The notes: generated by a model from the letters alone, not told the origin. Shown: positions 10,760 through 57,659, counted from the first letter of the stretch. The stretch is 64,000 nucleotides of DNA from Thermoproteota archaeon (GCA_029258835.1 JAPDJY010000030.1:64001-128000); one strand, 5' to 3'. Made by a program: numbers and translations.

Positions 10760-11042
10760 GGCTGTCGGTGGGTTCGAACCCGCAGCCAGCGGGTTACAAC
10801 TGCGGGGTTCACGCTTGGTAGGTTTTTATGGGTGGATGTGGTTTTGGTCTGTCAGGTGTTTCCCCGTCATCGAAGCATAAGCCTCTGATGGGGCTTTCGG
10901 GGTAACCCCGGAGCCACGCGTCCGAAGACTCCACCCATAAGCCACCCCGTGGCCAAACCAGCACCCCAAACACTCACCGAGTATTTAACTGCTTCGCAAG
11001 GCGCATCACGCATCCGTTGCTCCACCGCTAAGTTACGCCGGC
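10760..11042 (-). pseudogene. Decayed tRNA-Thr(UGU)-like gene interrupted by the 200-bp element
   Basis: 5' half GCCGGCGTAACTTAGCGGTGGAGCAACGGA (11042-11013) and 3' half TTGTAACCCGCTGGCTGCGGGTTCGAACCCACCGACAGC (10799-10761) flank the repeat. Confidence 0.55.
10804..11003 (-). mobile_element. 200-bp non-autonomous element / ncRNA gene, copy A (TnpB omegaRNA/HgcC-like core with own promoter)
   Basis: About 92% identical (hand alignment) to 57460-57659; BRE/TATA-like CGAAGCAGTTAAATA; core GGCTCCGGGGTTACCCCGAAAGCCCC...CGATGACGGGGAAA. Confidence 0.7.
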
Positions 11043-11206
11043 ATTTTAACGTTTTAATGTTTCAGCTACACTGTCCTCCGCCATGACGACTAATTTCAGC
11101 AGCCATAACAGTATTTGTATTATTGCGTCCCAGACTGGCCTGTTACCTCTCCTTTTCGCCCCGCCCTCCAACCTTAGTGTGTCTCAAGGGCTTTAAGGAG
11201 CTGCCA

Positions 11207-11396
11207 AGGGCTGCCCGCCAACTCTTTTCACGGCTTCTAGGATGCGGAAGAATTGGTAAAATTAGTGAGAACGGTGGTAGCGGGGGGTGGATTTGAACCA
11301 CCGATCCACCCATCCCAACAAACGATTACACACAAATCTTACCAACCCTCCACGTCCTAGAAGCCGCGAAAAAGGTTGGTAAGACGTGGCAGCCCT
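11207..11396. repeat. Imperfect ~60-bp inverted-repeat arms (11207-11267 / 11331-11396) around an att-like core
   Basis: CGGCTTCTAGGA (11231-11242) and TCCTAGAAGCCG (11355-11366) match perfectly; similarity extends out to AGGGCTGCC/GGCAGCCCT. Confidence 0.7.
11275..11306 (-). repeat. Perfect 32-bp inverted copy of tRNA-iMet 3' end (att-like core)
   Basis: Reverse complement equals 10703-10734 GATCGGTGGTTCAAATCCACCCCCCGCTACCA. Confidence 0.92.
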
Positions 11397-11472
11397 CCCT
11401 CTGCAAGCGGCTCCGAGGCTCCTGCTACAGCCCCTGAGGAGCCCTGAGGCTCCGAGCAGGGCTTCCCGGCGG

Positions 11473-11991
11473 TCAGCGTTTCCTCCCCTTGCAGCCCGTG
11501 GATGCGGCTGCCTCCCGGCTGCTGCCTGCAGGAGCAGCGTCCGCGGACGCCGCAGGGCCAGCCAGCCCCCCCTCCCTGACCAGCTCAACCAGCTCCCCCA
11601 ACCTCCTATCCAAACGCTCCAAAACCTCCAGACGCTCCAGGGCCTCCAGCTTCCGGTCCATGCTGTCCAGCTTCTTCAGCTGTTTTAGTTGCTTCAGCTG
11701 TTTGTCCATTTTTTCTAGCTGCTGGGTCATTCTGGCCGTGTGTCTTGCTGTGGCTACTTCTGCTCCTGCCTCTATTGCTCCTGCTGCGGCGTCCACTCCT
11801 GCCGCCGCGGCCCCCAGGGGGCTGGGGGACGCTGCACCCTTCAGGAGGCCTCCGGCAGCCCTGAGCAGGCCCGCCGCAGCCCCCAGGACACCCGGCCTGC
11901 CAAGAAGCCCACCCCTGCCCTTACCCCTCTTCCTGCTTTCAGCCTTCCTCCTGCCTCCGGGCTTCTTCCTGGATTTTGGCAACGTGGACAC
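11473..11991 (-). CDS. Orphan protein: basic N-terminus, Gly/Ala-rich segment, coiled coil
   Basis: Heptad-like LKQLKQLKKLD/LEALERLEVLERLD; TATA-like GTTATAT about 25 nt upstream of the GTG; GC-richer than neighbours. Confidence 0.6.
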   Translation of the reverse strand: MSTLPKSRKKPGGRRKAESRKRGKGRGGLLGRPGVLGAAAGLLRAAGGLLKGAASPSPLGAAAAGVDAAAGAIEAGAEVATARHTARMTQQLEKMDKQLKQLKQLKKLDSMDRKLEALERLEVLERLDRRLGELVELVREGGLAGPAASADAAPAGSSREAAASTGCKGRKR

Positions 11992-54801: not shown

Positions 54802-54849
54802 CAGATGACTCCGGAATCCACATTTAACCCCTTATAAGAAGGTGATCGC

Positions 54850-55536
54850 ATGTACGAGATCTTGTTTCTCGTCGATAACAGCGAGCTTGTGGAGGGAGTT
54901 AAGTCAACTTGGGGCTTATCGATCTTGGTTAAGTCACCCTCGGAAAAGCTTCTCTTCGACGTCGGCCCCTCATTCAGCCTCCTCACCGCAAACGCCAGCA
55001 AGCTTGGTGAAGACCTCAGCGACGTAAATACCGTGGTCATATCGCACATGCACTCTGACCATGCAGGCGCCCTTAAAGCCTTCATCGACTTTAATCCTGC
55101 CGTCCGCATATTCCTGCCTGCAAGCCCGCTTTCACCCCATTACTTCCATGCAAACTTAACCTACGTTAAAGGTTGGCTTGCCCTTTCTGAAGGCATCCAC
55201 GTTACAGGTCCTTTCCCGTCGTTTCCAGAGCAAGCCTTAGCTATACTAAGCAGACGCGGCCCCTTCATCCTAGTTGGCTGCTCCCACCCTGGACTGACTA
55301 GTATACTGAAAAAGGTCGTTGAAGAAACAGGCGTAAGCGGGATTCTAGGTGTCGCAGGGGGATTCCACGTCTCAGTCTCTAAGGAACTCCTAATAGCTGC
55401 AGAGTACTTGAAGACACTTTCCCCATCCATAGTAGTTCCCTCACACTGCACTTCTCAAGGAGCCATCGACTATCTTAAGTCGGAACTGGGTGAATGCGTT
55501 GTGAAGGGAGGTGTTGGGTTAAGACTAACCATTTAA
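54850..55536 (+). CDS. MBL-fold metallo-hydrolase
   Basis: SHMHSDHAG, GCSHPG, GGFH, SHCT. Confidence 0.88.
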   Translation: MYEILFLVDNSELVEGVKSTWGLSILVKSPSEKLLFDVGPSFSLLTANASKLGEDLSDVNTVVISHMHSDHAGALKAFIDFNPAVRIFLPASPLSPHYFHANLTYVKGWLALSEGIHVTGPFPSFPEQALAILSRRGPFILVGCSHPGLTSILKKVVEETGVSGILGVAGGFHVSVSKELLIAAEYLKTLSPSIVVPSHCTSQGAIDYLKSELGECVVKGGVGLRLTI

Positions 55537-57359
55537 CCTTTATCAACCTCTTTAAATATTTCATCGAGCTCTTTCCTTAGGGCTCTCACGTTAACTTTCC
55601 CTATAACCGTTACTGGAATTTTTTCCTTGATCACGAAGAGCTCTGGAACCTTATGTAGGGGGAGGTTGGCCCTACACCACGCCCTTAACTCCTCCTCCAC
55701 CCCCTCCTTTCTCCTGTACTTTTCCTCCAGTTCTATGAAGGCTGCAACGACTTCGCCATAATCTGGATGGCTATGTTTGATCACTTTAGCTATTTTAACG
55801 GCAGGATGCTTGGCTATTACCTCCTCCACCTCTGCTGGGTAGAACGGCGTTTCCATTTTACCTTCCTCAATTCTGCCCATATAATAAATGAAGCCGTCTT
55901 CATCGTACATTCCAATGTCTCCCGTTCGCATCCATCCGTCGATCAACGGTAAAGGTGCCCCCCTAGGCTTGCTAAAATAGCTTTTAGCCATCGCCGGGGA
56001 CTTAAGCATGATCTCCCCTACTTCACCCGGCGGGAGGATTTTTCCCGTTTCCGGATCAACTATCTTAATGAACGTTTTTGGTGAGGGTATCCCGCAGAAC
56101 ACCCCGTTGTACCTCTCTGATCTTTCAACGTCAAGGTTCTCAATGAAAAACGCATTAGCTATGGTGTCGTACGTGTGGCTCTCAGCTAACCCGTAGCTTA
56201 CCTCACAGAGGACAACTCCTGTCAGGTCAAACCACCTCATCCTTAAACTCTTGGTTAAACGTGTTGTGATGCTCGTCCCAATGCAGCTCCTTAAACTTTT
56301 AAGATTGTACCTTCCAACCTTAGGATGCCTTAGGATCTCATCGTAAAGGGAGAATTCAAGGTAGGTAATGGTTACCTTGTACCTTTCGATGGCTTGCATG
56401 GCGGATACGGGATCCCACTTCTCCATTAAAACTACGGTTTTACCCCCAAAGATGGGGCCGTCCACGCAGCATAGCTTCCCCGCAATCCAGAAGCTTGGCA
56501 TAGCACCCAAAATAACGTCGTCTTCGAACTCCTTCTCCAGCACCTCAAACTTAACGCTTTGCTTCCTGTACTTTTTGACTATGGGGGCGGCGTTAACGTA
56601 AGTGTAGGTGAGAGCTGCTTTAAAGAGTACGTTCCAGTGCGTGTGCAGGCAAGGCTTTGGAAGCTTATAGGTTCCACCTGTAAAAACTATTGTTGCTGGG
56701 TCATCGAGTTTAACGTCAACTTTCCCCGTATCCGCCTCTGCTTCCTTTAAAACCTTCACCAGATCCCATCCTTCTCCAATGTCCTTCTTAGGCTCCTTAA
56801 CCTCAGGAGGCGTCTCTATCTCAGCTTTCTCCATAAAGTCTGACAAACATGTTGCTACAATGCCCTCTACTCCCCCAGCCTTCCTGGCGACATCGGACAT
56901 CATAGGGTAATTCCTGTCAAGGCACACCACAACCCTCGGCTCGATCTCCCCCAGCAAGTACTCGATTTCATATCTTTTCGCCCTAGGATTCATTAACGCC
57001 GCAATGCACCCTGCCTTGAGGCTGCCAAAATACGTTATAAGGAGTTGAGGGCAGTTAGGGAGATGAAGCGCTACAACGTCCCCTTTCCTAACCCCTAACT
57101 CCTTAAGGAAGCATGCAAACCTATCACTCAACTCGTTTAGCTCATTGTAAGTAATCCTCGAACCATAAAATATCACAGCATCCCTCTCGGGATGATCCCT
57201 AGCCCACCTCCTTAAGTACTCAGAGATCGGTACCTTACCATGGGGGTAGACCTCCTCCACGGGTAACGGGAGAGGCCAATTCTCCCTCCATTTCTCTAAA
57301 AGAATTTTAAGGTACCTCTCTTCTTCAGCCTCTCTCACCACGATATCAGCCACAACCAC
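55533..57359 (-). CDS. Long-chain acyl-CoA synthetase (ANL family)
   Basis: FTGGT..LPK, YGLAE, GWMRTGD, PAEVE, GKV. Confidence 0.88.
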   Translation of the reverse strand: MVVADIVVREAEEERYLKILLEKWRENWPLPLPVEEVYPHGKVPISEYLRRWARDHPERDAVIFYGSRITYNELNELSDRFACFLKELGVRKGDVVALHLPNCPQLLITYFGSLKAGCIAALMNPRAKRYEIEYLLGEIEPRVVVCLDRNYPMMSDVARKAGGVEGIVATCLSDFMEKAEIETPPEVKEPKKDIGEGWDLVKVLKEAEADTGKVDVKLDDPATIVFTGGTYKLPKPCLHTHWNVLFKAALTYTYVNAAPIVKKYRKQSVKFEVLEKEFEDDVILGAMPSFWIAGKLCCVDGPIFGGKTVVLMEKWDPVSAMQAIERYKVTITYLEFSLYDEILRHPKVGRYNLKSLRSCIGTSITTRLTKSLRMRWFDLTGVVLCEVSYGLAESHTYDTIANAFFIENLDVERSERYNGVFCGIPSPKTFIKIVDPETGKILPPGEVGEIMLKSPAMAKSYFSKPRGAPLPLIDGWMRTGDIGMYDEDGFIYYMGRIEEGKMETPFYPAEVEEVIAKHPAVKIAKVIKHSHPDYGEVVAAFIELEEKYRRKEGVEEELRAWCRANLPLHKVPELFVIKEKIPVTVIGKVNVRALRKELDEIFKEVDKG

Positions 57360-57459
57360 CTTTTAAGCAAGTGTAAAAACTGTGAACCACCAGCTGAATA
57401 AAGTTTTTGTCCTCCTCCCTCAGCCTTCTAAACCCTTACCTCCTCACCCCCAAAGACGC

Positions 57460-57659
57460 CGCCTTGCGAAGCAGTTAAATATTTTGTATGTGTTTGGGGT
57501 GCTGGCTTGGCCACGGGGTGGCCTATGGGTGGAGTCTTCGGACGCGTGGCTCCGGGGTCCCCCCGAAAGCCCCATCAGAGGCGCATGCCTCGATGACGGG
57601 GAAACACCTGACAGACCAAAACATACATCCACCCATAAAAACCTATCAAGCGTGACCCC
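57460..57659 (+). mobile_element. 200-bp non-autonomous element / ncRNA gene, copy B (omegaRNA/HgcC-like), followed by T-run
   Basis: Inverted near-copy of 10804-11003; TTAAATA at 57475-57481; stems GGCCAC/GTGGCC, TATGGGTGGA/TCCACCCATA, GTC-TTCG-GAC. Confidence 0.7.

Follow-up and report, generated by a model that had tools for sequence, protein, structure and literature searches.

The 64,000-nucleotide window analysed here (C2:64001-128000) belongs to a Thermoproteota archaeon whose assembly is a 2.72-Mb metagenome-assembled genome (MAG) of 91 contigs, 94.7% complete and without mcrA. It contains two copies, A and B, of a short repeat without protein-coding genes, here called the mini-element. 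A preliminary description made from the sequence had reported a 200-bp repeat with about 16 differences and had likened it to the guide RNAs (omegaRNAs) of TnpB nucleases. The repeat was recovered as described (92% identity across 200 nt, ~16 differences, E 4e-78), with the bounds corrected, since those given first took in three flanking bases 5′ and one base 3′. With the exact ends set from empty insertion sites, the family reads CTTGCG...GAACCC and measures 196 bp. The complete copy B (CTTGCG...GTGACCC) occupies positions 57463..57658 on the plus strand, as delimited by five empty sites and by the reading frame restored on removal of a further copy on contig C40. The complete copy A, 92% identical to it and placed by motif positions, lies at 10805..11000 on the minus strand. 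Both copies contain the box CGAAGCAGTTAAATA followed by a divergent spacer, differ by C/U changes opposite G (GTGGCC/GTGGCT; GCCTC/GCTTC) and have unrelated 3′ flanks, all as noticed at the outset. The window is also without tnpB or tnpA, the closest TNB-domain matches (C2:129437 and C2:130784) lying past its end.

A genome-wide search for further copies revealed a family far exceeding two, with 23 full-length stand-alone copies with sharp ends and seven further places that hold just the 3′ ~124 nt of the element, as ends of tnpB open reading frames (ORFs). Copy B is 81-96% identical to the 22 other stand-alone copies. The whole RNA scaffold and a TATA-like box are kept in 23/23, and no shorter deletion variants of the 196-bp family were seen among these copies. 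Across 29 copies neither the left-end terminus nor the TTAA of the TATA-like box varies, and unrelated sequence follows GAACCC(C) in every one. The repeat is almost certainly a tnpB-derived mini-transposon. It qualifies as a miniature inverted-repeat transposable element (MITE) in the broad sense, being short, non-coding and multi-copy, with ends common to a larger element and with insertion polymorphism, but the terminal inverted repeats and target duplication of classical MITEs are absent.

The modules of the mini-element are most easily followed on the plus strand of copy B. Directly 5′ of it stand the target-site bases CGC (57460..57462), the YGC part of YGC|C and a candidate target-adjacent motif on the evidence of the flank logo and the five empty sites. 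The left-end module (57463..57508) consists of the terminus CTTGCGAAGCAGTT, the TATA-like TTAAATA (57475-57481), which is a putative promoter, and a GT-rich stretch, and is homologous to the left end of a tnpB-carrying parent. Next comes a 5′ RNA module (57509..57535) that is specific to the mini-element and missing from the tnpB-linked copies, composed of a hairpin GGCCAC/GTGGCC (57509-57523) and the 5′ arm of a clamp, TATGGGTGGA (57524-57533). The remainder (57536..57658) is the omegaRNA scaffold common to the tnpB 3′ end, matching the 3′ ends of seven tnpB genes. It comprises a pseudoknot (~57546-57573), a hairpin ATCAGAGGC..GCCTCGAT (57574-57594) and a terminal helix ACACCTGACAG (57604-57614)/CTATCAAGCGT (57643-57653) followed by GACCC. 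The 3′ clamp arm TCCACCCATA (57628..57637) falls within the loop of this helix. On the model of TnpB omegaRNAs, each copy would take as its guide the sequence adjoining its right end on the 3′ side, that is 57659..57678 (+), a sequence unique to the locus, for copy B, and the likewise unique 10785..10804 (−) for copy A.

Derivation from a tnpB-carrying parent

The 124 nt of the element also form the end of seven tnpB genes of this genome, with 77-88% identity, and the seven linked ORFs carry Cas12f1-like_TNB (PF07282) and OrfB_IS605 (PF01385) domains. The suggestion that the core of the repeat corresponds to the RNA region overlapping the 3′ end of tnpB is thereby borne out. The tnpB stop codon (TGA in GCGTGAACCC) is found 7 nt ahead of the point where the homology, and the element, ends. 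The repeat had been observed to read like a TnpB tail, and it does so because the tnpB ORF runs to within this distance of the boundary. The preliminary description had proposed looking for a tnpB with the same 3′ sequence, and one of the seven, on contig C9 (C9:45896-47080), is intact. It encodes 394 amino acids and, when aligned to ISDra2 TnpB (PDB 8bf8), keeps the RuvC D/E/D residues in the motifs FDIN, LEDL and DRD. The other linked copies are frameshifted or interrupted by stops (three), heavily decayed (one) or cut by contig ends (two).

Upstream, five of the tnpB copies align to a common left end starting GCCTTGTGTAGCTGTTG. The stand-alone copies start GCCTTGCGAAGCAGTT and continue with the TATA-like box and GT-rich stretch of the parent left end, so that ~45 nt at their 5′ end match it. 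After the short element-specific segment they jump to codons just past the RuvC-III motif of tnpB. The shared left end and this jump identify the 196-bp element, as judged from sequence comparison, as an internal-deletion derivative of the tnpB parent. The characterization of the stand-alone copies as protein-free mini-elements, each with its own 3′ flank, thus proved correct.

Mobility, target site and recombinase lineage

The element is mobile, as demonstrated by presence/absence polymorphism. A pattern scan of JGI metagenomes retrieved 40 contigs carrying it, most of them orthologous to copies of this genome, and five insertion sites are filled in the metagenome strains and empty in this genome. 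Empty sites read X-YGC-C... and filled sites X-CGC|CTTGCG...GAACCC|C..., with YGC-C present in 5/5 empty sites. The target logo drawn from ~50 independent flanks is (A)YGC|C (−3 Y 45/52; −2 G 46/52; −1 C 48/52; +1 C 37/42). In the copy at C40:1631-1829 (−), taking out exactly 196 bp joins two frames into one of 388 codons, and the insertion therefore interrupts a gene. The same C40 insertion is carried by two metagenome contigs. A BLAST of the element against 40 related genomes gave weak partial matches only, and empty-site comparison was thus confined to the metagenome strains.

Aligned over the junctions, the five pairs read X-YG-CC-flank when empty and X-YG-CC-TTGCG...GAAC-CC-flank when filled. 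No target duplication occurs, and the dinucleotide CC, found once at the empty site, recurs at both junctions, which a serine-recombinase crossover would predict. Like IS607 elements, the mini-element has no terminal inverted repeats and shares one dinucleotide between both junctions and the target. The parent itself offers further indications. Between its left end and tnpB lies a 58-amino-acid ORF (MLRSGEVAKILGVDRHTV...) that is 40-56% identical to the N-terminal helix-turn-helix (HTH) of the genome's approximately eleven serine-recombinase (PF00239) genes and is devoid of the catalytic domain. Candidate tnpA_S genes of the genome lie at C12:45180, C20:2989, C64:2647 and C56:4806. In addition, an IS607 on contig C56 (tnpA_S, frameshifted, and tnpB) has a left end GCTTCGCGAAACTGTAAATATTTGGTAGAC and a right end ...GTCCGCTGAACCCC that both resemble the mini-element ends. 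The left-end similarity (C56:2801-2742) was found by eye and by BLAST, a left-end regular expression run on the full IS607 copies having missed C56 owing to indels. The HTH remnant and these IS607-like ends place the parent, on sequence grounds, in the IS607 lineage.

The junctions would also fit a Y1 tyrosine transposase inserting the element downstream of a short motif. The element would then be an IS200/IS605-type palindrome-associated transposable element (PATE), moved as single-stranded DNA, and not an IS607 derivative. Insertion of this kind without duplication is also a hallmark of IS200/IS605, the genome has two Y1_Tnp matches, and the left end can form an imperfect hairpin. Both Y1 matches, however, contain stops and neither lies inside an element with these ends. 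The left-end hairpin shows one-sided changes only and is without compensatory support, and a check for PATE palindromes predicted no hairpin near the right-end tip. Considering also the HTH remnant in the parent, the likeness of the ends to an IS607 with tnpA_S and tnpB, and the CC pattern that fits a serine-recombinase crossover, we find the Y1 explanation improbable and favour mobilization by a serine recombinase.

Several further observations concern the ends of the element and the DNA around them. In the C9 parent the 58-amino-acid ORF (C9:45754-45930; L024:291-467) lies upstream of tnpB, overlaps its start and has the appearance of a stand-alone HTH of MerR/excisionase type. It is conserved in four parent copies and for this reason may still bind the element ends. 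A comparison of C12:5379-6375 with L056:11917-12150 and L040 shows that 794 bp of unique DNA adjoining the right end of the copy on its 3′ side are absent from two metagenome contigs. The endpoint of this deletion is ATGC|C, a target-like site, and it has the appearance of an adjacent deletion mediated by a recombinase. At least two further small families of this genome open with a left end of the same type. In miniatures at C27:30198-30410, C4:53491-53703 and C20:22201-22528 the same left terminus (GCCTTGCGAA...) is joined to omegaRNA-like right-end modules of other kinds, whose matches are the 3′ ends of other tnpB families (C82, C60, C56). One of these miniatures follows a copy of the main family at a distance of 140 bp. 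A genome of the same phylum and another family (G014) has about ten matches to the left terminus, of 26-37 nt and 84-93% identity, on several contigs. The left-end terminus may be a recombinase site that is widely shared.

As to the neighbourhood within the window, copy B sits between two minus-strand genes and copy A adjoins a tRNA-Met gene (10657-10734, +). On either side of copy A, at 10740-10804 and 11001-11060 (−), there are tRNA-like fragments. The idea that the copy splits a decayed tRNA was rejected when ARAGORN found no tRNA after in-silico removal of the element. Elsewhere, at 6505-6616 (−), there is a tRNA gene missed by ARAGORN. It contains ~40-50 nt of additional sequence resembling an intron and reaches 38.7 bits with the Rfam tRNA model.

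The RNA fold and its conservation

The preliminary description had proposed a likeness to the archaeal RNA HgcC. This was not upheld by the covariance-model check, in which no Rfam family, HgcC (RF00062) included, matched copy A or B at gathering score or at E<=10. An exact-pattern scan of genome contigs for the scaffold core, own genome excluded, likewise gave 0 matches. Single sequences fold modestly better than shuffled ones (z −2.8 and −1.6), and among the young copies of this genome the changes reported by RNAalifold are mostly from G-C to G-U. More divergent sequences were provided by TnpB relatives of 60-74% identity in MAGs of Desulfurococcaceae, Baldrarchaeota, Archaeoglobales, Nitrososphaeria, Brockarchaeota, Geocrenenecus, Jordarchaeia and Bathyarchaeia. 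The covariance model R1, derived from this genome's copies, matches the tnpB 3′ end in 24/25 of the relatives' loci. Its automatic RNAalifold consensus is partly spurious, and R1 served only to gather and align the homologues, the helices then being set by hand.

The structure tested on this joint alignment combines an H-type pseudoknot and a hairpin with a terminal helix of 11 bp, closed immediately ahead of GAACCC. In it 89.9% of cells pair, as against 31-51% in slid controls. Compensatory change is found in 18/28 pairs, and both-sided changes number 116 cells versus 35.5 in shuffles, of which 0/500 attain the observed value. In the terminal helix the changes are visible by eye (ACGCCTGACAG/CTATCAAGCGT versus GAGCTAAGTAGG/CCTACTTAGCTC). 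The scaffold fold thus covaries strongly across TnpB relatives of several archaeal phyla. A nested, local alternative (hairpin CGGG/CCUG and nested G/C-rich stems) was weaker than the terminal helix and pseudoknot and was set aside.

The clamp fared less well. The 10-bp pairing TATGGGTGGA/TCCACCCATA pointed out at the start is present in copies A and B, but it is not family-wide, being imperfect in most copies and perfect in only ~5. Although 93.8% of cells in the 5′ hairpin and clamp can pair, the clamp shows no covariation and was rejected as a selected feature.

Some features of the scaffold and its relatives stand apart from this analysis. At 57592-57613 (+) the sequence GAUGA...CUGA around a short hairpin resembles a kink-turn of box C/D type, which competes with the covarying terminal helix. 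One copy (C11:28902-29106, −) has an internal 8-nt duplication (AGAGGCGT) in the scaffold hairpin, and one tnpB-linked copy (C37:24880-25009, −) a 7-nt duplication (ACCTATA) in the terminal loop. The TnpB clade (contigs L071-L095) is spread over archaeal phyla that differ greatly from one another, Asgard (Jordarchaeia) and Thermoproteota lineages among them, a distribution that, judged from these sequences, points to horizontal spread among thermophile communities.

Could the fold be a mere inheritance? An inert DNA parasite would be mobile and would possess an RNA-like fold received from a recent parent, but either no guide RNA would be transcribed from it or TnpB would make no use of that RNA, and it would have no role in retention. 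We think this unlikely, though it deserves serious consideration. The copies are young (81-96% identical), so that conservation alone is weak evidence, compensatory changes are not found among the mini-element copies themselves, RNA evidence is negligible, and most linked tnpB copies are decayed. On the other side stand the scaffold and TATA-like box preserved whole in every one of the 23 copies, with no shorter variants seen, and the strand-specific pattern of substitutions. In the paired columns of 29 mini-element copies, C>T, which gives G-U, occurs 46 times and G>A 9 times (25 C and 24 G columns), a tolerance about five times greater, whereas the bias is weaker in unpaired columns (24 versus 17). 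This bias suggests selection on the transcribed strand. For other systems, moreover, activity of stand-alone omegaRNAs in trans has been demonstrated (PMC10691335).

Guides, proposed function and known systems

The mini-element has the traits of a TnpB omegaRNA, that is overlap with the tnpB 3′ end up to the right-end boundary, a covarying fold with a pseudoknot, and a variable 3′ guide. As had been proposed, the 3′ flanks were searched for other targets, and none was found for any guide in the genome at >=17/20. The sole other genomic match to the copy B flank is 15 nt at C33:13658-13672, which is at chance level and has no YGCC alongside. From the lack of a second match it follows that the guides would address their own insertion sites only. 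This fits a role in TnpB homing and retention and misfits a TldR-like regulator, which is unlikely because no guide has a second genomic target.

The same evidence bears on the proposal, implicit in the preliminary description, that the copies are domesticated guide-RNA genes, fixed and host-serving, which guide a TnpB- or TldR-like protein to sites on the chromosome for purposes of regulation or defence. The conserved promoter-like box, the different 3′ flank of each copy and the 23 RNA-only loci per one intact protein, an arrangement resembling an array, would agree with such a function. Set against them are the guides without a second match, the presence/absence polymorphism between strains, a copy that disrupts an ORF, and a TnpB whose RuvC triad is intact. 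The stand-alone form, in addition, was not found in five relatives' genomes searched with model R1, where the inspected matches (G041, G042) were tnpB 3′ ends, nor by DNA search in the 40 related genomes. We consider domestication very improbable, and retain the interpretation of the copies as mobile elements whose RNA would serve their own retention.

The mechanism that we propose for this retention runs as follows. The left-end promoter would transcribe the scaffold and read into the flank, yielding an omegaRNA whose guide is the copy's own 3′ flank, and this RNA would be loaded in trans onto the TnpB of the family. A serine recombinase, TnpA_S of a resident IS607, would excise the element and reseal the site. 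The TnpB-omegaRNA complex would then cut the resealed joint of YGCC plus flank, and recombination with a filled copy would restore the element at the cut. In this manner the mini-element would be a parasite of its larger relatives in two respects, exploiting their recombinase as well as their nuclease. Taken as a whole, with transcription, use in trans and retention, we hold this mechanism to be reasonably probable.

Several observations count against the proposed mechanism and must be weighed with it. No intact-frame serine recombinase gene with exactly the mini-element ends was identified in the genome, and only one of the five fully readable tnpB copies is intact, two more being cut by contig ends. 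Instead of a promoter, the left-end terminus could represent a site of recombinase binding. As for the fold, the joint alignment was fitted to a model already holding part of the terminal helix, the C>T and G>A counts tally sequences and not independent events, and the 5′ module and clamp of the mini-element show zero compensatory changes among copies. Expression was assessed on assembled Logan contigs, with four runs checked by alignment, and stretches without RNA cover are no evidence either way. According to their records, the runs in which the locus occurs are hydrothermal-vent, marine-sediment, sediment or marine metagenomes. The sole signal from an RNA library is one depth-2 metatranscriptome contig (57541-57767), which the DNA library of the same sample also has and which cannot indicate start, strand or level.

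One may speculate further that the mini-elements are hyperparasites whose guide-RNA gene has evolved to be self-sufficient. The context of the tnpB mRNA would be supplanted by the left-end promoter together with the new 5′ hairpin and clamp, such that no TnpB-mediated mRNA processing is needed, and about 23 RNAs would compete for one nuclease-active TnpB. At the level of the population this could amount to a gene drive by which empty alleles of sister or incoming chromosomes are cut and become filled. We offer this extension tentatively and regard it as rather doubtful.

The locus is a clean natural example, from an uncultured archaeon of hydrothermal or marine sediments, of a TnpB transposon shrunk to a putative promoter and a guide-RNA scaffold and still spreading, with RNA-only copies exceeding the single intact nuclease gene by ~23 to 1. 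It supplies exact element ends, (A)YGC|C as a candidate for the target motif, an omegaRNA fold, backed by covariation, of a TnpB clade found in several archaeal lineages, and natural pairs of empty and filled alleles that are usable for a homing model in archaea.

Among known systems, several share part of this organization. The TldR proteins are nuclease-dead, TnpB-derived repressors in which the RuvC residues are absent, the loci are immobile and the guides match host promoters (PMC10705468). The likeness lies in a guide RNA gene that can be apart from the protein, whereas here RuvC is intact, the copies are polymorphic, and no trans targets of the guides were found in the genome. The sotRNAs, sense RNAs overlapping the 3′ ends of IS1341-type tnpB genes in Halobacterium (Gomes-Filho et al., PMC4615843), are similarly archaeal, in sense direction and at the tnpB 3′ end, but they lie inside intact tnpB genes, and the comparison is by description. 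Rfam gave no match here.

A homing or retention role has been shown for IS605 and IS607 TnpB, and IS607 TnpB promotes retention after scarless excision (Zedaveinyte et al., 10.1101/2023.11.20.567912). The IS607 systems agree with ours in lacking inverted repeats and target duplication, in the position of the omegaRNA across the tnpB 3′ end and right end and, as we see it, in scarless excision. They are bacterial (Clostridium) full-length elements or IStrons, in contrast to the archaeal miniature described here, which is without tnpA, tnpB or intron. PATEs often encode omegaRNAs that need TnpB in trans (Meers et al., PMC10055086), and the PATE-like minimal IS605 elements of Geobacillus stearothermophilus reported in the same work are likewise non-autonomous, without an ORF, and with ends common to tnpB elements. 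These belong to IS200/IS605, with palindromic ends and a Y1 TnpA, whereas the present element has no supported terminal palindromes and is of serine-recombinase lineage.

The closest counterparts are stand-alone omegaRNAs that have been mobilised in OMEGA systems and that are reported to act in trans (Altae-Tran et al. 2021, cited in PMC10691335). According to that account they are, like the copies described here, protein-less, multi-copy, encoded in the same genome as effector loci and provided with a guide each. Compared with them, the family here is of IS607 type, resides in an archaeon and has the left-end promoter region fused to the scaffold at the RuvC-III codons of tnpB, and its function in trans would be the shared property that we propose for it. 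Since mobilised stand-alone omegaRNAs and PATEs are already described, current understanding is unchanged. What the present family contributes is its particulars, namely the IS607 lineage, the archaeal host, the left-end promoter region fused to the scaffold, and an excess of ~23:1 over intact tnpB.

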